From contig OZ240232.1 in the NCBI GenBank assembly GCA_965197895.1, forward strand, positions 714,318-778,317: a stretch of DNA of 64,000 bases, read 5' to 3'. Numbering within the stretch: the first letter of the stretch is position 1; every line of letters starts with the position of its first letter. A program made the translations under genes and the position numbers. This document shows, in pieces, positions 5,651 through 45,538 of this stretch. A model generated the notes under the pieces. It made no database searches, was not told where the DNA came from, and saw only the letters and a program-made list of their open reading frames with translations. The stretch is from Candidatus Versatilivoraceae bacterium (GTDB taxonomy: Bacteria > Acidobacteriota > Terriglobia > Versatilivoradales > Versatilivoraceae).

Positions 5651-5977
5651 TCAGCCCTTGAGCCGGTTGACCGTCCTCACTGCGAGTACGGTGACAACAC
5701 CGGAATACAGAGCGGTACTGATGTGACCGACGATAGCGTCCAGTTGACCGCCAATCAACGGGATGGCGTTCAGCACGTCCGCACCGGCGGAAGCGCCGAC
5801 CGCAACGGCAACAACCAGGTAGGCTGTCGCATCCTCAGCGTTGACGGCCACGGCAGCATAGACCAAGCCCGCAATGACCAGCAGGATGCCAATTGCGCCT
5901 GCATCCTGGATGCCGGGGGCAAAGGCCTTCACAATTGCCAGGATTGCCACCACCGCGACGATGATTCTAGTTAACAT
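5651..5977 (-). CDS. small Gly/Ala-rich membrane protein, unknown function
   Basis: 108-aa ORF, strongly hydrophobic (MLTRIIVAVVAILAIV...). Strong RBS GAGGGGAGAAG just upstream of ATG on minus strand. Confidence 0.5.
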   Translation of the reverse strand: MLTRIIVAVVAILAIVKAFAPGIQDAGAIGILLVIAGLVYAAVAVNAEDATAYLVVAVAVGASAGADVLNAIPLIGGQLDAIVGHISTALYSGVVTVLAVRTVNRLKG

Positions 5978-18771: not shown

Positions 18772-19791
18772 ATGGTCGTTCTCCCGGATTCATCCAAGAT
18801 TCTGATCATACGGTATGGCCGATTGGGGGACGTCGTACTCCTGATTCCAGCCGTGCGGGCTCTGCGCCAAAGGTTTCCTTCCGCTCACATCTCGGCTCTG
18901 GTGGATCAGCGATATTCCCCGGTTCTGGAGATGTGTTCCGCCATTGACGCCGTTGTCCCCGTGGACCGCATCGGAATGCGGGATAGTCCTTGGTGGTCAG
19001 GAACTCGAAGCGCTTTTCAATTGGCCGAAGGACTGCGAAGAGCTGAATATGACCTGGTGCTCGATTTTCACGGTTTTCGGGAAACCAACTTGCTGGCCTG
19101 GTACAGTCGGGCCCGTTGGAGGATTGGTCTCAAGAGGACAGAGCCTTCCTACCTGCCCTTCTGCTTTAACTTGGAGCCTGTCGTGGAGAACCAGAACCTG
19201 CATGTGGCCGAGCGGTTTCAATCACTGCTGGAACCCCTAGGGGTCGTCCCGGGGACGCAGGACATCTCTCTTGAGCTTCCCTCCGAGACCACAAGCAAAG
19301 CGGAGGCGTTCCTGCGGGAAGAACAGTTGGCCGGATGTACCGCCCTGATTGGAATGAACCTGGGGGCCAGCGCTGTCGACAAAATGTGGCCGGCTGCAAG
19401 CTTTGCGGCTCTTGCCGACAAACTTGCCCGGCGGTTCGATGTGGGAGTCCTCTTTCTTTGCGGACCCGAAGAAGAAGATCTTCTCAGGCAAGCCGAATCA
19501 GCTCTGGAGACCCATCGTTACGCTCTGGTGGGTCAGCTCGGATTGAAGGACTTGGCGGCGGTGGTCAGCCGGTGTGATTTGCTGGTGAGCAACGACTCCG
19601 GACCGATGCACTTTGGCCCTGCTTTGGGAGTCCCCACCCTGGGTTTGTTTAGTTTGAGCTCTCCCTTGCATTACCGGCCCTTGGGTGAGCACAGCCGTTT
19701 TTTGAGGAAGGTTCCGGTCGGAGAAATCCGGGTGGAGGAAGTCTTTGAGCAGGTCGTGGAAATGATGGGTCTAGTGACCGGTGGCCGGTGA
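18772..19791 (+). CDS. glycosyltransferase family 9 (ADP-heptose:LPS heptosyltransferase-like)
   Basis: KILIIRYGRLGDVVLLIPAVRALRQRFP N-terminus and C-terminal DSGPMHFGPALGVPTLGLF motif typical of GT9. Start chosen at ATG 18772. The last codons (GLVTGGR) are encoded by the first units of the heptamer array. Confidence 0.75.
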   Translation: MVVLPDSSKILIIRYGRLGDVVLLIPAVRALRQRFPSAHISALVDQRYSPVLEMCSAIDAVVPVDRIGMRDSPWWSGTRSAFQLAEGLRRAEYDLVLDFHGFRETNLLAWYSRARWRIGLKRTEPSYLPFCFNLEPVVENQNLHVAERFQSLLEPLGVVPGTQDISLELPSETTSKAEAFLREEQLAGCTALIGMNLGASAVDKMWPAASFAALADKLARRFDVGVLFLCGPEEEDLLRQAESALETHRYALVGQLGLKDLAAVVSRCDLLVSNDSGPMHFGPALGVPTLGLFSLSSPLHYRPLGEHSRFLRKVPVGEIRVEEVFEQVVEMMGLVTGGR

Positions 19792-19927
19792 CCGGTGGCC
19801 AGTGACCGGTGGCCAGTGACCGGTGGCCGGTGACCGGTGGTCAGTGACCGGTGACCAGTGACCGGTGACCAGTGACCGGTGGCCAGTGACCGGTGGCCAG
19901 TGGCCGGTGACCGGCGGCCGGTGGTCA
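19774..19927. repeat. tandem array of ~11 units of 14-bp GTGACCGGTGGCCA (alternating 7-mers GTGACCG/GTGGCCA)
   Basis: Read directly: gtgaccggtggccg gtgaccggtggcca ... with minor unit variants. Ends at ggtggtcAGATCTgtaagg immediately upstream of the four-helix-bundle gene. Confidence 0.9.
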
Positions 19928-19943
19928 GATCTGTAAGGGTTAG

Positions 19944-20333
19944 TTGCGAATGATGAATCCGTTAAAGAGCTATCAGGACTTGGAGGTCTGGAAGAAATCA
20001 ATCGAGCTAGCGGAGAGCGTCTATCAAATCTCTACTCGGTTTCCGCCGGAGGAGAGGTTCGGCGTGACCAGCCAAGTGCGGCGGACAGCAGTGTCGGTAG
20101 CGGCGAACATCGCGGAGGGAGCGGAACGTCACGGGACCGGAGAGTTTCTTCAATTTCTGGGAATCGCTAGCGGGTCGCTAGCGGAGTTGGAGACTATCTT
20201 GATTCTGGTGCATCGACTGCAGATGGTCACCTCCGAGCAGGCTGCCAGGCTGTTGGAACAAGCGGCGGAGGTTGGACGCCTGCTTAACGGCCTCAAGCGT
20301 TCACTGCGATCTAGAATGCGATCTAAAAACTGA
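19944..20333 (+). CDS. four-helix-bundle protein (TIGR02436 / 23S rRNA-intervening-sequence-protein family), copy 1
   Basis: 129 aa: SYQDLEVWKKSIELAESVYQISTRFPPEERFGVTSQVRRTAVSVAANIAEGAERHGTGEFLQFLGIASGSLAELETIL. This is the family consensus (xYxDLxVWQKA ... FxLTSQxRRAAVSIPSNIAEG ... FLxIAxGSLxELxT). Confidence 0.8.
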   Translation: MRMMNPLKSYQDLEVWKKSIELAESVYQISTRFPPEERFGVTSQVRRTAVSVAANIAEGAERHGTGEFLQFLGIASGSLAELETILILVHRLQMVTSEQAARLLEQAAEVGRLLNGLKRSLRSRMRSKN

Positions 20334-20350
20334 ATGGAGAGGACTTCCCC

Positions 20351-20418
20351 AGCCACCAGCCAGTGACCGGTGGCCAGTGACCGGTGGCCAGTGGCCGGTG
20401 ACCGGTGGCCGGTGGTCA
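20351..20418. repeat. second, shorter copy of the GTGACCG/GTGGCCA heptamer array
   Basis: cagccaccagcca gtgaccggtggcca gtgaccggtggcca gtggccggtgaccggtggccggtggtcagatct; part of the 491-bp duplication unit. Confidence 0.85.
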
Positions 20419-20434
20419 GATCTGTAAGGGTTAG

Positions 20435-20824
20435 TTGCGAATGATGAATCCGTTAAAGAGCTATCAGGACTTGGAGGTCTGGAAGAAATCAATCGAGCTA
20501 GCCGAGAGCGTCTATCAAATCTCTACTCGGTTTCCGCCGGAGGAGAGGTTCGGCGTGACCAGCCAAGTGCGGCGGACAGCCGTGTCGGTAGCGGCGAACA
20601 TCGCGGAGGGAGCGGAACGTCACGGGACCGGAGAGTTTCTTCAATTTCTGGGAATCGCTAGCGGGTCGCTAGCGGAGTTGGAGACTATCTTGATTCTGGT
20701 GCATCGACTGCAGATGGTCACCTCCGAGCAGGCTGCCAGGCTGTTGGAACAAGCGGCGGAGGTTGGACGCCTGCTTAACGGCCTCAAGCGTTCACTGCGA
20801 TCTAGAATGCGATCTAAAAACTGA
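20435..20824 (+). CDS. four-helix-bundle protein (TIGR02436 family), copy 2 (protein identical to copy 1)
   Basis: Nucleotide sequence differs from copy 1 at only two synonymous third-codon positions (gcg/gcc, gca/gcc); protein 100% identical. Confidence 0.8.
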   Translation: MRMMNPLKSYQDLEVWKKSIELAESVYQISTRFPPEERFGVTSQVRRTAVSVAANIAEGAERHGTGEFLQFLGIASGSLAELETILILVHRLQMVTSEQAARLLEQAAEVGRLLNGLKRSLRSRMRSKN

Positions 20825-20840
20825 ATGGAGAGGACTTCCC

Positions 20841-20946
20841 CAGCCACCAGCCACCGACCACCGACCACCGACCACCGACCACCGACCACCGACCACCGAC
20901 CACCGACCACCAGCCACCGACCACCGGCCACCGACCACCGGCCACT
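20841..20946. repeat. tandem array of 7-bp CACCGAC (CCACCGA) units, ~13 copies
   Basis: cagccaccagccaccgaccaccgaccaccgacc...; lies between 4HB copy 2 and the stop of the convergent cytochrome b/c gene. Confidence 0.9.
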
Positions 20947-20953
20947 GCAAAAG

Positions 20954-22603
20954 CTACTGGCGAGGATCCAGCGGGAGAGATTCCATGTAGGCGACGATGG
21001 CATTCATCTCGTCTTCAGGGAAATCGTAGGCCGGCATGATGCTCTGACGATCAAATTTCTGAGGATTACGGAAATGAGCGACCAGCCATTCTGCTGTTCT
21101 GCGCTGGCCGACGCCGTTGAGAGGGGGACCTGATTCCACTCCACTTCCGTTGACGATGTGGCAGGAGCCGCATTGGTTCTCCTGGTAAATCAGGGCACCT
21201 CGCATGGCGTAATCGGGGACCGCTTGCAGGGTCCCGGCGTTCTCCGGAGTGAGTTTCAGCAAGAAGGCGGTCAGGCAGTTCAGTTCTTCGTCGGGAATGG
21301 TCATGGCCGGCATGGGACTGCCGGGAACGACTTCGGAAGGATTTTTGAAGTGCTCGATGAGCCATTCGGTTGACTTTCGCTGTGCTACGTTGGCCAGCGT
21401 CGGTCCCATCTTGGGTTCACCCTCACCCAGATTGTGACAACTCGCACAATTTTCCCTACGATAGTAGGCTCTCCCGGCCATTTCCACCGGCGTGAGTTGT
21501 CTCCAGTCTGCCGTAGCCGGCAGCGTCTCCCGAGCGGGCTCCACCGGCTCGGGTGTGGTCATGACCGCTCCCACAGTCAAGCCCAGCCAGCCGGCCACAG
21601 CCAGACCGACCACGGCGAAGGCCGCCGTCCGCTGCTGGATTCGCTTGACCCTGCCGCGATCGAGAAAAGGAACGGCCATTAAGGCGATGATGGCCAGTGT
21701 GGGGAGAATGACGGCCCCGACCACTTCCCACGAACCCTCGAAGAACTTGAGCATCTGGAAGAGAAAGAGGAAGTACCATTCCGGCCGGGGGACATAGGTG
21801 CTGTCACTGGGATCGGCCAGACGCTCCAGGGGCACGTCCACGGCGGCGGCCAGGATAAACAGAACAATAAAGACGGCGAAAAAGGCCATCAAATCCTTGA
21901 AGGCTTGACCGGGATAGAATTTCTTCTTGGGTTTACCCACCGCTTTGGGGTCGGGAGTGACTCCATGCTTGCGAACCAGGTAGACGTGGAGCATCATCAT
22001 CAGCACCGTCAAGCCCGGCAGCATCAAGACATGAAGGGTATAAAAGCGAGTGAAGGTCGCCACACCGACGCCGTCGGAACCGCCAAGAAAATCAAGGACA
22101 TAGTCCCCGACCAGCGGAGCGAGGCCGGCAATCTGGACCGTTACCACCGTAGCCCAATAGGCCCGGTTATCCCAGGGGAGCAGGTAACCGGTCAATCCGA
22201 AGGCCAGCACCAACAGCAGCAGCAAAACCCCCAAAATCCAGGTGGCCTCCCGCGGCTTCTTGTAGGCTCCCCACAAGCCCACCTGAATCATGTGCAGCCC
22301 GACCACCACCACCATGAGGGTGGACCCCCAATGGTGGAGCCCCCGGATCAGACGTCCGCCAGTGATCTGGGTGACAATGTACTGGAGACTGTAATAGGCG
22401 TCGCCCGGTTGCGGGGCATAGTTGAAGGCCAGCAGAGTGCCGGTAAAGGCTTGCACAAAGAAGAGGAAAACGGCAACGCTGCCAAAGACCTGGTGCCAAC
22501 CACTCGAGGCCGGGATGTCTTCATAGAGGAAGTTCTTGACAGCCGTTTCGAATCCGGTGCGATGATCCGCCCAATTCAGGATTCTTCGAAGCAGATCCCT
22601 CAT
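20954..22603 (-). CDS. cytochrome b (bc-complex type) fused to C-terminal di-haem cytochrome c
   Basis: 549 aa; 8+ TM helices with conserved His pairs of cytochrome b. C-terminal CASCH and CGSCH haem c motifs. ATGA overlap with the upstream Rieske gene. Confidence 0.8.
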   Translation of the reverse strand: MRDLLRRILNWADHRTGFETAVKNFLYEDIPASSGWHQVFGSVAVFLFFVQAFTGTLLAFNYAPQPGDAYYSLQYIVTQITGGRLIRGLHHWGSTLMVVVVGLHMIQVGLWGAYKKPREATWILGVLLLLLVLAFGLTGYLLPWDNRAYWATVVTVQIAGLAPLVGDYVLDFLGGSDGVGVATFTRFYTLHVLMLPGLTVLMMMLHVYLVRKHGVTPDPKAVGKPKKKFYPGQAFKDLMAFFAVFIVLFILAAAVDVPLERLADPSDSTYVPRPEWYFLFLFQMLKFFEGSWEVVGAVILPTLAIIALMAVPFLDRGRVKRIQQRTAAFAVVGLAVAGWLGLTVGAVMTTPEPVEPARETLPATADWRQLTPVEMAGRAYYRRENCASCHNLGEGEPKMGPTLANVAQRKSTEWLIEHFKNPSEVVPGSPMPAMTIPDEELNCLTAFLLKLTPENAGTLQAVPDYAMRGALIYQENQCGSCHIVNGSGVESGPPLNGVGQRRTAEWLVAHFRNPQKFDRQSIMPAYDFPEDEMNAIVAYMESLPLDPRQ

Positions 22604-23109: not shown

Positions 23110-23428
23110 GACTTGAGATCCCTTTGAGGTATCAAAACAGCGAAAGCGGCGAGCCGCCAAACCGCCGCCTATTATGCCAGACCTGAACGATTGATCAGAA
23201 GGACAAAAAAACTGGGCCCGGATGCTGCTTCCGCCATTGGCGGACTTGGAAGCGCCTTGCCGGTGGCTTGACGGCTGCGATGTCAGGATGATGTTGGTCG
23301 TCTCTCCGGTTACGGCCGCGGAATGAAGTTGCCGAACGGAAACGGACCAGTGAACCCGGCGCTGCGCCCTGCCCCAGGCACACAACTTTTTCCTTGACAC
23401 ACTCTCAAGCGCATGGCATAACCTGCGC

Positions 23429-24094
23429 ATGTACCAGCAGCACTGCATTCTCGAAACCCTGACCTCGGAGGCGGGAGCGGCGCGGGTGGCGGCCTTGATG
23501 TCGGCGGAGACCTTCCCCAGCCGCACGGCGGCCGGTCGCCGGGTCTGCGAGGCGTTCGGTTTTCGGGATGCCGGGGGTCGCCTGCAGCAGGCAGGCTGCG
23601 TGAAAGCGTTGCGGGTGCTGGAGGCGGCGGGCCGGATTGGGCTGCCGGAACCGCTCAACAGGGGCGGGGGGAGGCAGCCTCGGGATCTGGGGGAAGGGGT
23701 CCCAGCGGCGGAGGGGGTGCCGGAGCGGGTGGAGGCGGTGGAGGGACTGAGGCTGGTGCTGGTGAGGGAGCAGGGGGAGCGGCATCGGTGGAATGGGCTG
23801 ATGGCACGGGAGCATCCGCGAGGGGCGGTGCGGCATGCGGGGGCACAGTTGCGCTATCTGATCGTCTCGGCGCATGGGACTCTGGGAGGGATGGGCTTTG
23901 CGGCCTCGGCGCTGGCGCTGGCGGCGCGGGACCGGTGGATGGGCTGGGAGGAGGCGACTCGGAAGCGGCAGTTGCACCGGGTGGTGGGGATGAGCCGGTT
24001 CCTGATCCGGGAAGGGGTGGAGTGCCGCAACCTGGCCTCGAAGGCGCTGGGGATGGTGCTGGGCCGGTTGGGAGAGGACTTCCAGCAGCGCTAC
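23429..24094 (+). pseudogene. 5' part of the IS4-family transposase gene (DUF4338-like N-domain), interrupted by nested IS
   Basis: ...LRYLIVSAHGTLGGMGFAASALALAARDRWMGWEEATRKRQLHRVVGMSRFLIREG...FQQRY then the insertion. Continues in-frame at 26183 as RYRPVLVETFVD... Confidence 0.6.
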
Positions 24095-26178
24095 CCCATC
24101 TTTAACACAGGAACGGGCGATGGGGGGGATTTTACCCCCATTTTGGCCCAAAACCACCTGTAAGTTGTTGATTCTTCGTAGGAGAAGCTGAAGTAGTGCC
24201 ATAATCGTATGGGAGGGGCTTGACCCCCTCGCCCCCCTCTGTTAGGGTCCCTCCCATGTTCATCCGCCGCACCCAGACCCGCTCCACTCCCTCCGGTCAG
24301 ACCTACTTCACCCACCGCCTCGTCCGCTCCCATCGCCTCTCAGGCAAGGTCCGCCAGCAGACCCTGCTCAACCTCGGTCGCCACTTCTCCATCCCCCGCC
24401 ATGACTGGCCCCTGCTGTGCCGCCGTCTCGACCAGATCCTCAGCGGTCAGTTGCCCTTGATCCAGGAGGGTTCGGCCCCGTTGGAGGAGGAAGCCCAACG
24501 CATGGCCGAGCGCTTGCTCGAGGGGGAAGCCGACGTGACCGGCACCGCTGGGGAGGCCTCTTCAGAAGACCTGCAGACGGTGGCGGTGGATTCGGTGGAG
24601 GTGACCCGTCCGCGCAGCGTCGGGGTGGAGCAGGTGGGCTGCTGGGTGCTGGAGCAGTTGGGGTTGGTGGAGTTGCTGGCCGAGTTGGGTCTGAATGGAC
24701 CGCTGCGGGCGGCGGCGGTGGGGGCGATTGTGGGCCGTCTGGCCCGTCCCGGCTCGGAACGGGCCACCTGGGGCTGGCTCGGCCGGCGCAGCGGCTTGGG
24801 CGAGTTGCTGGACTTTGACTTCCAGACACTGAGCCTGATGCAGATGTATCGGGCTTCAGACGCCCTGATGAGACACCGCCAGGCCATCGAGGCCCACCTG
24901 TTCACCCGGGCCATGGGTCTGTTCGATCTCGAGCCGACCGTCACCCTGTTCGATCTGACCAACACCTTCTTTGAGGGGGCGGCCCGCCGTCAACCCAAGG
25001 CCCAGCGGGGGCACTCGAAGGAGAAGCGCAGTGACTGTCCCCTGCTGACCCTGGGGTTGGTGCTGGACGGGGCCGGGTTTGTGCGCCGCTCGCAGGTCTT
25101 TGCCGGCCGGGTGGATGAGCACCGCACCCTGGCCGGGATGCTGGGGGCGCTCGAGGCGCCCCAGGGGGCCCTGGTGGTGATGGATCGGGGGGTGGCGACC
25201 GAGGATCGCATCGGGTGGTTGAGGGAGGAAGGGTACCGCTATGTGGTGGCCAGCCGCCAAGGCTCCCGGCAGTTCGACCCCGAACTGGCCCTGACCTTGG
25301 AGACCGCTTCCAAGGCCAGGTTACAGCTCCACAAGGAGGTCTCAGAGGACGGGGGGGAAGTGCGTCTCTACTGCCGTTCCGAGGAGCGGGCTCACAAGGA
25401 ACGGGGTATTGTCGAGCGTTTCAGCCGGCGCTTCGAGCAGGGGCTCGCCCGAATCTCCGAGGGGCTCTCACGGCCGCGGGCTCACAAGGGCATCGAGAAG
25501 GTCCGGGAACGGATCGGGCGGCTGAAGGAGCAGAGTCGCGGCGTGGCTCAACACTACACCATCGAGGTCCTCACCGACGAGAGCGGCCGCAAGGCGACGG
25601 CCCTGACCTGGAAGCGTCAGCCCCGCCAGGGCTCGATGGTCACCCATCCGGGGGTCTACTGCCTGCGCAGCAACCAGACCGACTGGGACGAGGAGAGCCT
25701 GTGGCGCACCTACGCCACTCTCACCGACGTGGAAGCGGTGTTTCGCTCCCTGAAGTCCGAGCTGGGCCTGCGCCCCATCTATCATCACAAGCCGGTGCGC
25801 TCGGAAGGCCACCTGTTCCTGACCGTCATCGCCTATCAACTGGTGCAGGTCATCCGCAAACGCCTCAAGCAGCGGGGCGACTCCTCCAGTTGGACCACGC
25901 TGCGGCGCATCCTGGAAGGACAGCAGCGGGTCACGGTGACCTTCCGGCGTGGGGACGGGCGGACCTTGCACGTGCGCAAGGCCACGCGGGCAGAAACTGA
26001 TCAGAAGGCCATCTACGACGCCCTGGGCATCGATCCCGCTCCCGGAGGGGTCCGCAAGATGATCGTCTGATCCCCCCCATATCGCCGGTTTCAACGCGTT
26101 TGTAGTGCCACTTGCGCGTTTCTGCCTTCGTAACCTGTTGATAATAAGCGTGTACTCGGAAGCCGCGTTAAAGATGGG
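24095..26178 (+). mobile_element. IS1634-family insertion sequence nested inside the IS4 transposase gene
   Basis: Perfect 12-bp terminal IRs CCCATCTTTAAC (24095-24106) / GTTAAAGATGGG (26167-26178). Flanking CTAC on both sides (24091-24094 and 26179-26182) is consistent with a 4-bp target-site duplication (TSD). Removing the element restores the in-frame host ORF. Confidence 0.75.
24256..26070 (+). CDS. IS1634-family (IS4 superfamily) DDE transposase
   Basis: 604 aa; motif GHSKEKRSDCPLLTLGL matches the IS1634 GxSKDxRxD signature. DDE region VVMDRGVATEDRIGWLREEGYRYVVASRQ. Confidence 0.75.
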   Translation: MFIRRTQTRSTPSGQTYFTHRLVRSHRLSGKVRQQTLLNLGRHFSIPRHDWPLLCRRLDQILSGQLPLIQEGSAPLEEEAQRMAERLLEGEADVTGTAGEASSEDLQTVAVDSVEVTRPRSVGVEQVGCWVLEQLGLVELLAELGLNGPLRAAAVGAIVGRLARPGSERATWGWLGRRSGLGELLDFDFQTLSLMQMYRASDALMRHRQAIEAHLFTRAMGLFDLEPTVTLFDLTNTFFEGAARRQPKAQRGHSKEKRSDCPLLTLGLVLDGAGFVRRSQVFAGRVDEHRTLAGMLGALEAPQGALVVMDRGVATEDRIGWLREEGYRYVVASRQGSRQFDPELALTLETASKARLQLHKEVSEDGGEVRLYCRSEERAHKERGIVERFSRRFEQGLARISEGLSRPRAHKGIEKVRERIGRLKEQSRGVAQHYTIEVLTDESGRKATALTWKRQPRQGSMVTHPGVYCLRSNQTDWDEESLWRTYATLTDVEAVFRSLKSELGLRPIYHHKPVRSEGHLFLTVIAYQLVQVIRKRLKQRGDSSSWTTLRRILEGQQRVTVTFRRGDGRTLHVRKATRAETDQKAIYDALGIDPAPGGVRKMIV

Positions 26179-26182
26179 CTAC

Positions 26183-27865
26183 CGCTACCGGCCGGTGCTG
26201 GTGGAGACCTTCGTGGATGAGGCGAGCCATCGGGGCACGAGTCTGAAGGCGACCAACTGGATCCGGGTGGGGGAGACGGCGGGACGGGGCCGGTTTGCGG
26301 CGACCGATGGGAAGGTCGCGGTGAAGGCGATCTACCTGTATCCTCTGGTAGAGGACTGGCGGGAACAGTTGGGGATCCTGCCGCCGGAGCCGATCCGGGG
26401 GCTGGGATGCGGGGAGGGGCTGGACCGGGAGGAATGGGCGGAGAACGAGTTGGGGGGAGCGCGGCTGGGGGATGAGCGCTTGAGCCGGCGGCTGGTGCGG
26501 AGCGCTTCGGTGCAGGCGGGGGCGCCGATGGCGTCGTTTCCCTCGGCGGCCCAGTCGGACAAGGCGATGGTGATGGGCTACTACCGGATGATCGACCAGC
26601 CGGCGGACTCGGAGGTGACGCCGGACAATATCCTGGCGCCGCACCGGGCGCGGACGCTGAGGCGGATGCAGGGGAAGGAGGTGGTGCTGTGCCTGCAGGA
26701 CGGGACGGATCTGAACTTCGCCGAGCATGAGGGCTGCCAGGGGCTGGGACTGATCGGCAAGAACCAGAGCGGATCGGGGACGCTGGGGCTGCACATGCAC
26801 TCGACGCTGGTGGTGGATGGGGAGGGGGTGCCGCTGGGGGTGCCTCAGATCCAGTACGAGGCGCCGGAGGCAACGGGACAGAAGGGCAAGCCGGCGCCGG
26901 AGCGCAAGACCCAGCGCTGGGTGGAGGGTTTGCGAGAGTGTGCGAGGTTGGCCTCGGAACTGGAGGGGGTGCGACCGGTGTCGGTGATGGACCGGGAGGG
27001 GGACAGCTTCGAACTGTTTGTGGAGCAGCGCCGGTTGGGGACGGTGGATCTGCTGGTGCGGGCGCAGCACAACCGGCGGTTGGGCAGGAAACTGCCCAAG
27101 CTGTTCGAGCGGGTGCGGGCGGCGCGGGCGCAGGCGGGGATGGAGATCGAGGTGGGGCGCCGTTCGGCGCGGCGGGCAACCCGCCAGCAGAAGGCGAGGG
27201 AGAAGCGGGAGGGGCGCTTGGCCCGGGTCGGGTTGCGCTGGCGCACAGTGGAGCTGGCGCCGCCGAGCAACGGGGACTTCACCGAGGAGGCCCCGGTCCG
27301 TCTGAATCTGGTCCACGTGCGGGAGGAGAGCGCCCCCGACGGAGTCCGACCGTTGGAGTGGTTCCTGTTGACCACCGTGGGGGTGAGGTCGAGCCGGGAG
27401 GCGAAACAGGTGTTGGAGTGGTATCGCCTGCGCTGGCGCATCGAGGACTGGCACCGGGTGCTGAAGACGGGCTGCAAGGCGGAATACCTGGGGCACCAGA
27501 GCGGGGATCGGATCGAGCGGGCGGTGACGATCAAGGCGGTGATCGCCTGGCGTCTGATGGCGATGACCCTGCTGGGCCGGGAGAGGCCGGAACTGCCGGC
27601 CGAGGTGCTGTTCTCCGATATGGAGATCCTGGCCCTGAAGGACTTCGCTCAAGACCGGAGGCTGCGCCTGCCCGACACTCTCGGACCTACGGTGGTGACC
27701 CTGGCGATGCTGGGTGGATATCTCAACCGGAACAACGACCGGCCGCCCGGCCACCAGAAAATCTGGGAAGGGTACGTGCGCCTGGCGACCATGGCCCAGA
27801 CTTACGAAAGACTCATCAAGCTGAACCGGACCAGCAATCTATATGAGAGGCTGCGTCCCGGTTGA
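26183..27865 (+). pseudogene. 3' part of the interrupted IS4-family (Tn5-like) transposase gene
   Basis: Aligns with Tn5 Tnp: GARLGDERLSRRLVRSASVQA ~ AALGDPRRTARLVNVAAQLA; catalytic D (LQDGTDLNF), D (VMDREGDSFE), E in YRLRWRIEDWHRVLKTG (YREK signature). Confidence 0.65.
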
Positions 27866-27951
27866 ACTTGTGGGTAAAGGGCAGGCTGCGCCTGCTCGCG
27901 GAGAAAATTCCAAAAGAGAGGTTGGCGCCCGGACCGATTCGATTGTATTCT

Positions 27952-41261: not shown

Positions 41262-41302
41262 AGGGGATTTCTCACCAAAGGTAGGAATCGTCGACTCTCA
41301 AT

Positions 41303-41385
41303 CCACGAAGGGGATCCACGAAGAGCACGAAGGGGAAAAGAGATATCCACGAAGGGCCACGAAGGACGACGAAGGGCCACTAAGG
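41303..41385 (+). repeat. array A: 7 direct copies of (C)CACGAAGG spaced ~9-13 bp
   Basis: tCCACGAAGGggatCCACGAAGaGCACGAAGGggaaaagagatatCCACGAAGGgCCACGAAGGacGACGAAGGgCCACtAAGGgg. Confidence 0.85.
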
Positions 41386-41581
41386 GGTTGGAGAAGGCTC
41401 AAGAGGGATCCGCCAAAGGTCGGGAAGGGACTGACAAGAAACCCGCAAACGAGAGAGTGGTGGTGACTTGAGGCTCGTTGGTTTCGTGCAATAAATTCTA
41501 GATAGCCGATGGGACACAGTCGGCAGAGAAGGCAAGTGCCTCCGAACCAGACGAACGGTGCACGGCGTAAGGAGTTTTGAA

Positions 41582-41970: not shown

Positions 41971-43450
41971 GAGCCTTTTGCAAAATTCGTAGTGGAGCAT
42001 GTCATTTTGCTGGCTAACGTGATGTGCCACTCGTGACTACCCGACAGCAAAGGCACTTTTGAACGGAAATGTCCGGATCTGAAGGCCGGATCACAGGCGG
42101 TCGCCGGAAGCAGGCACAGCTTGCCTCATTCCTGCCCTACGGCGGGTGCTCATCCTGCATTGTCCGGGATCCGTCGCGACGGGCTCAAAGCATCAGGCGC
42201 ATCAACTGTTCCACCGTCAGCGCGAGAATGCCGAACATCAGGTGGCACCACACCTTGCCTGGGCCGCGAACCCTCACGTACCGCCCGCCAAACTCGTCCT
42301 TGAGCCGTCCGTTCACCCGCTCCACGGTCGAGCGTTCGCGGTAGCGCCTCGCCTCGGGAGACACTTGGCCGATGCGGCGCTGCGCCAGCGCCTCCCGCTT
42401 TCGTTCCGCTTTCACCTGCGGCCGCCTGCGGGGGTTGAGGTCGATGATCGGCACATGCCCCAGCTTTTGGCTGAAGGCCCGGATCTCCGGCGCGTCATAG
42501 GCGCTGTCCATCAGGTCGTAGAGGCTGTCGACCCGACTCGCGGTCAGCCTCGCCAGCGGGATCGCCGCCTGACTGTCGTGCACCGAGGCTGACGTCAGCA
42601 GGCAACTGACCGGAATGCCGCCGTCGATCGCGTCGATGTGCAGCTTGTAGCCGGTCCAGCTCTCCTGATATCCCTTGGCGTTGCGCTTGACGCCGATGTC
42701 GCAGACCTTCGGCAGGTCCTCCAGCATCTGCTCCAGCGTCATCGACGCCTGCCGCTGCAGACGGCGCGGCTCCTTCGGCCGTGGCTCGTCCTGGCGCGGC
42801 CGACCCCGCCGGCGCTTCGCTTTGGCCGTCGGGGCGGGCTTGGGCGCCGGCGACTCGCGTCCCGGGATCGTGGTCGAGTCCCTCGACACATGGCCCGCCA
42901 GGTGGCCCGCTAGCGTTCTGTCGAGCAGCGCCTCATGCAGGCGCCCCGGCAGGTCGCTGGCGGCAAATTCCGCAAAGGCGCGTGAGAAGGTCGCCTCGCT
43001 CGGCACCCCACCCGCCGCCTCCCAGCCGCACAGGCGGCGCAGCGTAGGTTCCGTCCTCAGCCGCTCCACCAGCCCCCGGGTGGTGGGCACATCCAGCACC
43101 GCCTTCGCCAGAAAGGCCCGCGCCAGCGCCCCACGATCCTTCAGCGGCCGGCCCCGCCAGCCCCCGCTGTAGGGCAGCCACTCCTCCACCCGCACCAGTT
43201 CCAGCACTCGGACGAGCCGCTCGTAGCGCTCGCCGAGGGGACCCAGTGCCTCCTCCAGCCAGGGGAACAGCTCCCGTTGAAACGTGAACCAGTGTCGTGA
43301 TAGGGTTTGTCTAAGGGGCAAGTTGGCTCTCCTTTCATCATGAGGATGGGGTATCTCCATGATACAACAGAGAGCGGACTTGTCCCCTCGATTGACCTAT
43401 TCCCTTACCTTTCCCGACAAAAAATCCCGCTACCTACGGAATTTTGCAAA
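41971..43450 (-). mobile_element. IS5/IS1182-like insertion sequence (1480 bp) with 22-23-bp IRs and 4-bp AGCT target-site duplication (TSD)
   Basis: IR-L GAGCCTTTTGCAAAATTCGTAG (41971-41992); IR-R revcomp of ctacggaattttgcaaaaggctc (43428-43450) = GAGCCTTTTGCAAAATTCCGTAG. AGCT at 41967-41970 and 43451-43454. Excision restores one continuous ORF. Confidence 0.75.
42185..43360 (-). CDS. IS5/IS1182-family DDE transposase
   Basis: 391 aa; DSAYD...IIDLNPRR...YRERSTVERVNGRLKDEFGGRYVRVRGPGKV...HLMFGILALT: C-terminal signature of the IS5/IS1182 group. Confidence 0.7.
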   Translation of the reverse strand: MEIPHPHDERRANLPLRQTLSRHWFTFQRELFPWLEEALGPLGERYERLVRVLELVRVEEWLPYSGGWRGRPLKDRGALARAFLAKAVLDVPTTRGLVERLRTEPTLRRLCGWEAAGGVPSEATFSRAFAEFAASDLPGRLHEALLDRTLAGHLAGHVSRDSTTIPGRESPAPKPAPTAKAKRRRGRPRQDEPRPKEPRRLQRQASMTLEQMLEDLPKVCDIGVKRNAKGYQESWTGYKLHIDAIDGGIPVSCLLTSASVHDSQAAIPLARLTASRVDSLYDLMDSAYDAPEIRAFSQKLGHVPIIDLNPRRRPQVKAERKREALAQRRIGQVSPEARRYRERSTVERVNGRLKDEFGGRYVRVRGPGKVWCHLMFGILALTVEQLMRLML

Positions 43451-43454
43451 AGGC

Positions 43455-44076
43455 TCAGCTACCTGTAATGACGGGCGAACGCACTGTAAAGGGAATCATC
43501 AGCTGGAAATCGATAGGCACGAGCTTCTCATTGGGGGGGCCGTGCGAGTGGGTTCGTGATTGCATGGAAGAATCGGTGGAAGAAATCTCTATTGACGCTC
43601 CTCTTTTTGAGGCTATTGGCTCCACTGCAAAACACGGATACTTGTTAGTGCGAGGCAAAGACAAGGCTGTAACTGGCATAGTGACGGAAACCGACGTTTC
43701 CAAACAGTTCATGCATCTCGCTGGCCCGTTCTTGCTCATCGGCGAAATAGAGGGCCACTTGCGCCAGTTGATTCATGGAAAGTTCACTGTTGAAGAAATG
43801 CAGTTAATATCCGAGGGTGAAGGGGGACAAGGCATTTCCGGTTCGGCAGACCTGACTTTTGGCGGATACTGTCGACTCCTGCAGAATCCAGAGTACTGGG
43901 AAAGGCTGAATCTGGGTGTCGATCGAGGGCAGTTCGTTGAACATCTGGAGTCCGTGAGAAAAATACGGAATGATGTCATGCATTTTGACCCCGATGGTTT
44001 GTCTCCTGAAGATGAAAGGATGTTGCGGGGTGTCGCTCGATTTCTTGAGACTTTGATCAGAAAAGGAGTGAAGTGA
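43455..44076 (+). pseudogene. 3' part of the interrupted gene: second CBS motif + C-terminal HEPN-like domain (Rx4H)
   Basis: After removing the IS and one AGCT, the frame continues ...DFSQLPVMTGERTVKGIISWKSIG...HGYLLVRGKDKAVTGIVTETDV (CBS) ...LTFGGYCRLLQNPEYWERLNLGVDRGQFVEHLESVRKIRNDVMHFDP (R-x4-H HEPN motif). The first 5 codons of the track ORF (MQKAQ) derive from the IS IR. Confidence 0.6.
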
Positions 44077-44265: not shown

Positions 44266-44323
44266 GAAGGGGAAAAAAGAAATCCACGAAGGGGCACGAA
44301 GGACCACGAAGGGACACGAAGAG
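44266..44323 (+). repeat. array B: 4 direct copies of CACGAAGG at ~10-bp phase; ~85% identical to the distal part of array A
   Basis: gaaggggaaaaaagaaatCCACGAAGGgGCACGAAGGaCCACGAAGGgaCACGAAGAg; aligns with gaaggggaaaagagatatccacgaagggccacgaaggacgacgaagggccactaagg from array A. Confidence 0.85.
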
Positions 44324-44452
44324 ACTGATTGCTGATTTCTGTTCGTTGATTGGGGAGTTGTGACAACTGATTTTGCCTTAAATCCAAATTCTACAATCCG
44401 AAATTCACGAAACTTGACTCATCTGTCAATGTCGTTTCGACTCAAGAGATCT

Positions 44453-44525
44453 AGCCACTGACCACTAGCCACTAGCCACTAGCCACTGACCACTGACCAC
44501 TAGCCACTAACCACTAACCACCGAC
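44453..44525. repeat. tandem array of ~10 heptamers CACT(G/A)(A/G)C / CACCGAC
   Basis: agCCACTGACCACTAGCCACTAGCCACTAGCCACTGACCACTGACCACTAGCCACTAACCACTAACCACCGAC. Overlaps the last 5 codons and stop (44507) of the minus-strand nitrilase-family gene; preceded by AGATCT. Confidence 0.9.
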
Positions 44526-45409
44526 TTGGCTTCCGTCAGGGCGCCGAAGAGTTCGGGACGTCTTTGGCGCAGGGTGTAGTTGGGTTGGCTGCGCGCTTCC
44601 CAGAGTTTTTCGGGGAGCAAATCGGCGATCAGAACTTCTTCCTGAATCTTCTCGAAGGAGGTTGCGGCAGCCACCTGTCCCAGCGGGTCCATGATCAGAC
44701 AGCCGCCAGCATGGTTAGGTTGGTTGGGGCTGTCCTTGGGGTAGGTGTCGACGATCCCGGCTCTTCCAGCCTGATTGCAGAGCACCGTATAGCAACTGTT
44801 TTCGTAGGCTCGGGCGGAAGCGATCATGTGGAAGTACCGGCCCGAATAGGCGGCCGCCTCTTTCTCCGACTCCGGATCGTCGGTCCACATCTTCAACCGG
44901 GCGGCGTGGGGCATCAGAATGACATCGGCCCCCTTCAGAGCCAGAATCCGGGGGACCTCGGGAAGGGAGTTGTCGTAACAGATGACCGTTCCCACCCGGC
45001 ATTTGCCGATGTCGAAGACGGGCATCTCCGAGCCGCCTTCGTAGTGAATGACCTCGTCCCGGGAGAGGTGAATTTTTCTCTGAGCCCCGATGTAGCCCTT
45101 CGGACCCACCAGAACCTGGGTGTTGTAGACGATATCGTTCTCTTTTTCGCTGAGGCCCACGCTGAGAAAGACATTCAAGGCTTGGGCCAGCAGGCAGAGG
45201 TGTTCGACGCTGCGGCCGTCGGGCACTGCCTCTGCCTGATACCAGGTATTGGGCGCGTTGTGTCCATGCACCACCAACTCGGGGAAGAGGACCAGGTCGG
45301 CGCCCGAATCTTTGGCGCGAGCCGCCCATTGGTCAATGGCACGCAAATTCTTTTCCGTCTGGCCCAGTAACCCGTTCATGGCGACCGCCGCAACTTTCAG
45401 TTTTTGCAT
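44507..45409 (-). CDS. carbon-nitrogen hydrolase (nitrilase superfamily), paralog 2
   Basis: MQKLKVAAVAMNGLLGQTEKNLRAIDQWAARAKDSGADLVLFPELVVHGH..., collinear with 7478..8368. Start chosen at ATG 45409. Confidence 0.8.
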   Translation of the reverse strand: MQKLKVAAVAMNGLLGQTEKNLRAIDQWAARAKDSGADLVLFPELVVHGHNAPNTWYQAEAVPDGRSVEHLCLLAQALNVFLSVGLSEKENDIVYNTQVLVGPKGYIGAQRKIHLSRDEVIHYEGGSEMPVFDIGKCRVGTVICYDNSLPEVPRILALKGADVILMPHAARLKMWTDDPESEKEAAAYSGRYFHMIASARAYENSCYTVLCNQAGRAGIVDTYPKDSPNQPNHAGGCLIMDPLGQVAAATSFEKIQEEVLIADLLPEKLWEARSQPNYTLRQRRPELFGALTEAKSVVSG

Positions 45410-45538
45410 GGGATCAAACCTCGCTTCACTTTGATTCTCACAGGTCTCAGGAAAGAAAACCGAAACCGCCGCCGCTGCCGGAACCACAAAGCACAACGGA
45501 ACCGGGGAGGACCGAGCCGGGCGACGGCAGGTCCGGGG

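Follow-up and report, generated by a model that had tools for sequence, protein, structure and literature searches.

Inverted heptanucleotide arrays around a four-helix-bundle gene: a probable intervening-sequence-type cassette, tandemly duplicated in a Versatilivoraceae bacterium and variable in copy number

The TIGR02436/PF05635 proteins rank among the most widespread small orphan families in bacteria. Some of their genes, designated S23p, are open reading frames (ORFs) within intervening sequences (IVSs) of 23S rRNA, as in Coxiella burnetii and Leptospira. The Coxiella IVS is 428-444 nt long and has been acquired horizontally. Inverted repeats at its ends form a 28-bp stem, whose loop contains an ORF of this family, and the element is excised by RNase III (PMC4990558). 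The present analysis concerns a 64,000-nt stretch of DNA from a Candidatus Versatilivoraceae bacterium (contig OZ240232.1, positions 714,318 to 778,317; hereafter the window, numbered from its first letter), in which two adjoining copies of a four-helix-bundle gene of this family lie between a GT9 glycosyltransferase gene and a cytochrome b/c gene. By its sequence layout, the repeated unit is a cassette made up of a G-rich heptamer array, a 23-nt leader, the PF05635/TIGR02436 gene, a 23-nt trailer and an array of the reverse-complement type. It is probably an IVS-type insertion cassette, i.e., a four-helix-bundle gene within inverted heptamer arrays, of which the window contains two copies; the interpretation as a passenger of this type is based on the match in size and layout with the Coxiella IVS. 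The recent tandem duplication of a small multi-copy gene would by itself be ordinary. What appears to be new is an IVS-type element with tandem-array arms, located outside rRNA, whose architecture extends to the whole family.

The cassette resembles the 23S rRNA IVSs in its length (about 430-490 nt), its terminal inverted repeats and its PF05635 ORF, as well as in sporadic distribution, horizontal spread and insertion at a point where a transcribed host gene can be interrupted. Among the defining traits of an IVS, the terminal inverted repeats and the S23p/PF05635 ORF in the loop are present, whereas the rRNA location is not: IVSs occupy helix 9, 25 or 45 of the rRNA, while the window cassette is intergenic and its relatives lie in frame within protein genes. 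The arms of the cassette are tandem arrays of 7-8-nt units that are specific to each locus, in contrast to the unique 28-bp stem of the IVS. Furthermore, the cassette ORF is under purifying selection while the Coxiella ORF is decaying, and excision by RNase III is known for the IVS. The parts of the duplicated locus are the following.

19773-19928, + strand: left (upstream) arm, about 22 heptamers AGTGACC/GGTGGCC/GGTGACC (Tandem Repeats Finder, TRF: period 14, 11.1 copies)
19927-19949, + strand: leader 1, AGATCTGTAAGGGTTAGTTGCGA, with a Shine-Dalgarno-like TAAGGG 10 nt ahead of the ATG
19950-20333, + strand: four-helix-bundle gene copy 1, 127 aa plus stop (PF05635, TIGR02436, PDB 2GSC)
20334-20356, + strand: trailer 1, ATGGAGAGGACTTCCCCAGCCAC (read from the sequence)
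20357-20417, + strand: duplication junction and inter-copy array (comparison at offset 491 and sibling loci)
20418-20440, + strand: leader 2, identical to leader 1 (read from the sequence)
20441-20824, + strand: four-helix-bundle gene copy 2, with synonymous differences at 20503 and 20581 (sequence comparison)
20825-20847, + strand: trailer 2, identical to trailer 1 (read from the sequence)
20848-20945, + strand: right (downstream) arm, about 14 CCACCGA heptamers (TRF: period 7, 13.6 copies)
19869-20853, + strand: the whole tandem duplication, two 491-bp units (TRF score 1949; 3 mismatches in 494 bp)

The duplication was detected by TRF as an array with a period of 491 bp (2.0 copies, 99% matches). 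Base-by-base comparison at an offset of 491 places 19869-20362 and 20360-20853 head-to-tail, with the three mismatches mentioned, and confirms the duplication of about 491 bp described in an earlier note on this DNA. One mismatch (19915, C/T) is inside the repeat array. The two coding mismatches (20012, G/C, and 20090, A/C) are third positions of Ala codons (GCG/GCC and GCA/GCC) and both are synonymous, so the two window proteins are identical. That the differences are only synonymous, as the note had it, is true of the window and not of other strains, in one of which (L001) two amino-acid changes and a 4-codon deletion occur. The mechanical ORFs start with TTG at 19944/20435 and give the 129 aa assigned to the identical proteins in the note; the identity stands, and the likelier start is instead the ATG at 19950/20441, which has TAAGGG upstream at a suitable distance and gives 127 aa. 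The assignment to the TIGR02436-type family was correct (TIGR02436, 119 bits; PF05635, 127 bits), and so was the location in a convergent gap between the GT9 and cytochrome b/c genes. The former, on the + strand, has its stop codon (19789-19791) inside the left array, and the latter, on the - strand, ends with its stop at 20954. Arrays had been noted 3' of the gene; they are found there and also upstream, and the downstream one is reverse-complemented.

The left arm covers 156 nt of RGTGRCC units, is G-rich on the sense strand of the gene and differs in length in every strain. The right arm is of the reverse-complement type of the left arm and contains a 95-nt array (20851-20945) that ends 8 nt before the cytochrome b/c stop. 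TRF scores are 235 for the 14-nt double unit (11.1 copies) and 162 for the 7-nt unit (13.6 copies). As inverted arms, they align over 57-111 nt with 75-82% complementarity. Both consist of head-to-tail 7-nt units in runs longer than chance and can be classed with the heptanucleotide tandem arrays known as short tandemly repeated repetitive (STRR) sequences or long simple sequence repeats (LSSRs). Within the 64-kb window, 76% of all bases in period-7 arrays flank these two genes. At the duplication junction, CAGCCA|GTGACCGG, the right arm contributes its first 6 nt and the left arm its last 55 nt, with CCA as the overlap where they join.

Sibling loci were obtained as metagenome contigs by exact-protein look-up, and copy counts were read from the assemblies. 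The gap between GT9 and cytochrome b recurs on three other contigs (L001, L002 and L003), whose flanks are 98.9-99.9% identical to the window, and for this reason the four loci are regarded as strains of one species. In all four, the cassette has the same neighbours, namely the GT9, cytochrome b/c, Rieske and SLT/LysM genes. The number of copies at the locus is one in L003, two in L002, two in the window and four in L001, a 5.5-Mb contig with 45x coverage. The junction is identical in every multi-copy locus (window, L001 and L002), the inter-copy arrays measure 44-68 nt, and the outer array lengths differ in every strain. L002 and L003 come from a single sample, in which the copy numbers two and one are found at similar depth. 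One of the four L001 copies encodes 123 aa owing to its 4-codon deletion, and another bears the two amino-acid changes. Near-identical units, a common junction and differing counts in conspecific strains are all features of a recent tandem duplication with copy-number polymorphism.

The earlier note had named a single copy in long reads, with the duplication then an assembly artefact, as the finding that would overturn it. Expansion of a repeat by an assembler in this repetitive intergenic gap could be imagined, given that low-complexity flanking arrays are badly handled by short-read assemblers. It is nevertheless very improbable and largely refuted: the copies differ at three positions, the same cassette has been independently duplicated in Caldilineaceae, and four independent contigs with one, two, two and four copies are set apart by array lengths, by a 12-bp indel and by copy-specific single-nucleotide polymorphisms (SNPs). 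The contig names (ctgN_45x_rc) also resemble those given by a long-read metagenome assembler. The analysis thus shows a real duplication, polymorphic in copy number within the species. The explanation offered in the note, a very recent duplication or gene conversion, possibly through the flanking microsatellites, is supported by the common array-to-array junction and by the copy counts. It was incomplete in that the unit is an insertion cassette with inverted arms common to the whole family. A tblastn search of the 64-kb window with the protein yielded these two copies only, both flanked by heptamer arrays.

Since the junction is array-to-array with a 3-nt overlap, it indicates that the founding event was one illegitimate event, by microhomology or slippage, between the cassette's own arms. 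The SNP states form a mosaic across copies and strains, and the pattern points to subsequent unequal homologous exchange or conversion between the 491-bp units, together with slippage of heptamers. A second, smaller slippage polymorphism is apparent inside the gene, where a 12-bp tandem duplication, TGCGATCTAGAA/TGCGATCTAAAA (20303-20326), encodes part of the C-terminal tail of the protein in both window copies; it is missing from one of the four L001 copies (L001 5396-5419 versus 5890-5901), the one of 123 aa. A unit of 490 bp whose copy number varies between co-existing strains offers a simple experimental system.

An adaptive amplification of gene dosage has also been considered, in which the host would benefit through regulation or defence, selection in some strains would favour more copies, and the arrays would be merely the substrate. 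The four copies in a strain assembled as a 5.5-Mb contig at 45x, the purifying selection on the protein and the frequent location of relatives near CRISPR-Cas, restriction-modification and integrase genes are in favour of it. Nonetheless, the protein has no PADLOC match, haplotypes with one and two copies coexist at similar depth in one sample, the two amino-acid changes and the 4-codon deletion of the L001 copies resemble neutral drift, and no promoter was found in 19600-21100. Adaptive amplification is therefore judged distinctly improbable.

The relatives of the gene bear on the reading as an insertion cassette. Its nearest homologues, at 65-82% identity, are spread over widely separated phyla. 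Species-representative genomes, when scanned, yielded a close subfamily of 80 loci with 61-79% amino-acid identity in more than 10 phyla, among them Chloroflexota, Latescibacterota, Poribacteria, Verrucomicrobiota, Nitrospirota, Desulfobacterota, Bacillota, Proteobacteria, Acidobacteriota, Planctomycetota and Cyanobacteriota. In most of these loci, a CAGTGGY-type array of period 7 ends about 20 nt before the start codon, and an array of the reverse-complement type starts about 20 nt past the stop. Homology between the window cassette and those of other phyla is also seen at the DNA level, in the leader part ...TTGCGAAT[G/T]ATGA and in the trailer core GGACTTCCC.

A distant set comprises 21 plasmid-borne relatives (33-52% identity) from Nostocales, other cyanobacteria, Gemmatirosa, Azospirillum and Riemerella. 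Nostoc punctiforme, Anabaena sp. 90 and Calothrix are among the carriers of plasmid copies. A tandem array of 7- or 8-nt units adjoins the gene in all 21, on both sides in most. More than 15 different units are represented, e.g., AGGGTGT, AGTAGGG, TCAGAAT, AGGGAAC, AAAAGGG, AGGAGATA, GGTTTAA and GAGGGCAG, and the downstream unit is usually the reverse complement of the upstream unit of the same locus. Within ±100 nt of the gene, 33% of the sequence consists of arrays, whereas their share falls to 4.5% in the farther flanks and 1.6% in the coding sequences. When the best inverted match over 21 nt was scored in 22 loci, a locus's own arms averaged 17.5, versus 13.6 ± 1.9 for arms combined across loci; the true partner ranked first in 13 of the 22, and none of 20,000 permutations reached the observed mean (p=5e-5). 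By this comparison, the two arms of a locus co-vary. The layout of array, gene and array characterises the family as a whole. The arms also have a common polarity, with a GC skew of +0.40 in the 80 nt upstream and -0.33 in the 80 nt downstream, the direction being the same in 29 of 29 loci (p=4e-9). Inverted arms with this skew in every locus mean that the G-rich strand always runs 5' to 3' towards the gene. Family members are often found in neighbourhoods with CRISPR-Cas, restriction-modification or integrase genes. Four distant ones (L167, L168, L175 and L165) are single small inserts, each with its own arrays, at cas6-cas4 (on two plasmids), at cas10-cmr3 and between two ribonucleotide reductase subunit genes.

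In cyanobacterial and other genomes, arrays of heptanucleotides have lacked an explanation since 1990, the year in which Mazel et al. reportedly treated the STRR heptanucleotide repeats of cyanobacteria. The arrays studied here are like the STRR type in their short runs of 7-nt units, in a patchy phylogeny that suggests horizontal spread and in their frequent position just upstream of start codons; unlike them, STRR-type arrays have been described on their own. TAACTGA repeats lie upstream of start codons in Beggiatoaceae, cyanobacteria and Bacteroidetes, and the LSSRs of Mrazek et al. 2007, as cited in that account, are of the same array class (PMC4679880). In the open-access full-text literature, no report was found that links PF05635 genes to flanking arrays, nor one of arrays paired as inverted, locus-specific arms or having the G-rich strand directed inward. 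At every locus examined, the gene family and the arrays co-occur, with matched arms, a locus-specific unit and the G-rich strand inward, and the finding brings rRNA intervening sequences, repeat arrays and an Avd-like protein together in one testable object.

Outside the arrays, most of the 80 close-subfamily loci are conserved as well, and the sequence there codes for a Type III restriction-modification methyltransferase of about 1100 aa (PF01555; PADLOC MTase_III, 1282 bits). The insert would add roughly 160 aa to it, for example in L026, the Desulfobacterium sp. N47 relative. Occupied methyltransferases read FGEPDI-TVTSGQWLVAS...[gene]...SLTTGHWSQVTV-HGVDVF, whereas empty ones, of which there are thousands, read FGEPDI-DILDAxDGQIQVKV-NGVDVF, and heptamers are absent at the site. 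The empty sites carry no heptamers, and arrays, leader, gene and trailer are accordingly regarded as one inserted unit of about 480 bp. The methyltransferase frame passes through the arrays as ...TSGQWLVAS... and ...SLTTGHWS..., and it crosses the whole four-helix-bundle gene as well, the latter being read in the +1 frame. Through the gene, the host frame has no stop codon in 72 of the 80 loci, while 1-11 occur in the third frame; the frame equivalent to that of the host contains 1-4 stops in cassettes located between genes, both window copies among them. Inside the Type III methyltransferase gene, two overlapping frames are maintained in more than 10 phyla, an overprinted arrangement of which no report was found in the open-access full-text literature. 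For annotation, it should be noted that gene callers split the host methyltransferase and label the arrays 'intergenic'.

A different host is found in Poribacteria, where the cassette (L040, 2860-3480) lies in frame within a 1952-aa LysM/peptidase M28 ORF and has arms of the methyltransferase type. In this locus, the usual ATG of the gene is ACG, an in-frame TTG is present 12 nt upstream, and a 40-nt block of the outer left array is duplicated. Heptamer-array hairpins without cargo, consisting of an array, a 12-15-nt spacer and an inverted array, occur in frame at two other sites of the methyltransferase (L008 2604-2680; L006 2480-2700; L004 2086-2234 and 2611-2680) and are translated, e.g., as SGQWPVVSGQKKNAQATGHRPRATEH; the orthologues L014, L020 and L031 lack them. 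Rickettsia palindromic elements (RPEs) are said to insert in coding sequence (Ogata et al. 2000). The cassettes of the relatives and the cargo-less hairpins resemble them in lying in frame in protein genes, read through without stops. RPEs differ in that they are gene-free, while the cassette overprints a selected gene in the +1 frame; moreover, the window copy is intergenic.

Several rearrangements have breakpoints in the arms. In Caldilineaceae, L055 carries two tandem copies where L052 and L058 have one, an independent duplication. L079 and L081 share their flanking genes with L072 and L080 (77-89% identity), and the interior of the cassette is flipped, with breakpoints inside the arms; re-insertion in the opposite orientation is possible as an alternative to inversion. 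The distance between two host anchors is exactly 498 nt in 56 of 60 embedded cassettes, and three have changed by one heptamer (two losses and one gain). A change of ±7 nt in the upstream arm of L010, L015 and L019 (about 2940-2985) makes the methyltransferase frame stop inside the array, which could be a phase-variation-like switching of the Type III mod gene or simple decay. The arms were found in these sequences to produce duplication, inversion and frameshifts of one unit. Phase-variable Type III mod genes with simple-sequence repeats, the phasevarions, are a known system. The likeness consists in repeats within a Type III methyltransferase ORF, where one 7-nt unit more or less truncates the enzyme (3 of 60); in contrast to phasevarions, the arrays here are short, imperfect and part of an inserted cassette, and the comparison excludes the window locus.

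The protein belongs, by profile and structure matches, to a four-helix-bundle family related to pentamers. It matches PF05635 over profile positions 1-106 of 106 (E=4e-37; cut-off 33.8 bits), TIGR02436 (E=9e-35; cut-off 24 bits) and NF008911 (140.6 bits; cut-off 137). The nearest solved relatives are 2GSC (XCC0516; E=4e-23) and 2RLD (E=6e-7), each deposited with five chains, and 2GSC has been described as a homopentameric toroid (PMC4990558). The window protein is basic, with an isoelectric point of 9.6. Median dN/dS is 0.12 in intergenic cassettes and 0.16 in embedded ones, values that imply purifying selection in both settings, with dS near or beyond saturation. Among the embedded copies, dS is about 1 or saturated, and for this reason they are considered old. 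The protein showed no match to known defence proteins in PADLOC, and there were no matches among 50,697 phage records. Strain-specific, adjoining four-helix-bundle genes with best matches in Chloroflexi have been reported in Arthrospira (PMC8700078).

The family has been reported as similar to Avd, the accessory protein of diversity-generating retroelements (DGRs), and as enriched near DGRs (PMC10053308), and the window gene could accordingly be taken for an Avd gene or its remnant. The two have in common a four-helix-bundle fold family, a small basic protein and solved relatives with five chains. The matches of the window protein to the Avd models are weak, 32.7 bits with NF033474, the NCBIfam Avd model (cut-off 80), and 32.6 bits with PF22296, the bAvd model (cut-off 40), and both fall under the curated cut-offs. 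The neighbours are GT9 and cytochrome b/c genes, and neither a reverse transcriptase nor a pair of template and variable repeats is present at the locus. Identity with a DGR Avd was rejected on these grounds and is hardly tenable.

With regard to its mode of existence, the cassette would lack a promoter of its own and be transcribed by read-through from the host gene, which at the window is GT9 on the same strand. Read-through is the economical assumption because there is no promoter-like site and the embedded copies lie inside ORFs. A search of 19600-21100 detected no sigma-70-like promoter, and as to a terminator of its own, the trailer has two weak minus-strand hairpins, no more than expected by chance. 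The transcript would fold into a long stem around the ORF by pairing of its G-rich 5' arm with its C-rich 3' arm, and the basic, Avd-like, probably pentameric protein would bind nucleic acid and help the cassette to persist or spread. By analogy with the rRNA IVSs excised by RNase III, pairing of the arms in the transcript may serve processing at the RNA level, a tentative proposal that is somewhat more doubtful than not. The predicted pairing energy of the arms is far below that of shuffled sequences (z=-7.6 at the window; z about -4 to -8 overall). In the best 111-nt alignment of the window arms (19800-19910 versus 20837-20947), all 27 mismatches are A:C; a transcript of the opposite strand, from the cytochrome b side, could consequently pair almost perfectly through G:U, which may be due to chance. 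These 27 mismatches are not independent, as they go back to about two differences at the level of the unit. Among RNA families, Rfam found no rRNA in 19400-21200 and gave only sub-threshold matches to miRNA hairpins.

A number of observations weigh against the cassette reading or against its RNA-level part. In the close subfamily, a locus's own arms pair no better than foreign ones (-68.6 versus -63.4 kcal/mol), which is put down to the similar heptamers used by all these loci; the arm match is seen in the distant relatives. Outside the window, mismatches comprise 36 G:U and 28 A:C, a difference that does not support pairing of the sense RNA, and the left array of the window is also complementary to itself. 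Matching arms could be maintained by DNA-level conversion between inverted repeats alone. In the distant set, L168 and L183 have direct instead of inverted arrays. The ~70 embedded copies probably descend from one insertion that spread with a highly conserved host gene, and they were for that reason not counted as independent insertions. The Coxiella ORF is not only decaying but seemingly untranslated (PMC4990558). No mobility enzyme was linked to the cassette at the loci examined, and no transposition or insertion event was caught in the act. A metagenome scan for cytochrome b/c did not find a strict empty site for the window locus: among the 80 nearest cytochrome b loci (57-71% identity), synteny is lost and none is near GT9 or a four-helix-bundle gene. 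The scan shows the cassette at this locus to be lineage-specific and yields no insertion boundary. The cassette also differs from insertion sequences (ISs) and miniature inverted-repeat transposable elements, having no transposase and inverted termini only in the form of tandem arrays; its boundaries, at the window as in the methyltransferases, show no recognisable target-site duplication.

Some of these observations bear on another explanation, according to which the arms are made and kept at the DNA level with the help of the protein, and the RNA stem has no role. At a chromosome break, a slipping or templated polymerase or a reverse transcriptase, acting together with the Avd-like protein, would add short G-rich repeats to both 3' ends, and the gene would be captured between them. 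Such synthesis would agree with the direction of the G-rich strand towards the gene in 29 of 29 loci, with units that are locus-specific and yet match between the arms of a locus, and with the lack of a clear excess of G:U over A:C. Furthermore, DGR Avd, which partners a reverse transcriptase, has this family as its closest relative, and only some methyltransferase orthologues carry cargo-less array hairpins. On the other hand, no polymerase or reverse transcriptase is linked at any locus examined, the L040 cassette brought its methyltransferase-type arms along, so that these were transported and not newly made, and conversion between inverted repeats plus slippage could yield the same pattern without a dedicated enzyme. 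Synthesis at the DNA level is thus considered unlikely.

A bolder proposal, and an equally improbable one at present, holds that the PF05635/TIGR02436 genes and the STRR-type arrays of 7-8-nt units belong together as a single system that propagates itself. Short G-rich repeats on the two 3' ends of an insertion site would be recognised by the Avd-like pentamer, or made by a polymerase with its help, and this would yield matched inverted arms with a locus-specific unit. Free of stops, the arms and the body would let the cassette live in rRNA, in intergenic gaps or in frame in proteins. If true, the system would represent a mobile element of a new class, and a large orphan family would gain a function.

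Other repeats and inserts were observed in the window. A solo heptamer array of CTAGCCA/CTGACCA (44451-44521, about 10 units) extends over the stop codon of a gene for a carbon-nitrogen hydrolase (44507-45496, - strand). No four-helix-bundle gene adjoins the array, which shares the boundary AGAT|CTRRCCA with the inner end of the left arm (19927). The sequence AGATCT at this array boundary was tried as a special site and rejected, as it is merely AGAT followed by the first CT of a CTRRCCA unit and other cassettes do not conserve it. A 10-nt unit, CCACGAAGGG, forms direct arrays at 41300-41386 and 44285-44325, around a segment of about 2.9 kb. An IS interrupts the gene in this segment (transposase at 42185-43360, - strand; CBS-domain part at 43444-44076). 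The segment may be another array-bounded insert, with another unit and other cargo. Adjoining the Rieske/cytochrome b operon, a 4.5-kb segment (23373-27884) is absent from the sibling strains L001-L003. It contains a DruA-like fragment (23429-24160) and two DDE transposases (24220-26067 and 26105-27862, Tn5-like) and is, by its gene content, a strain-specific insertion of the IS type.

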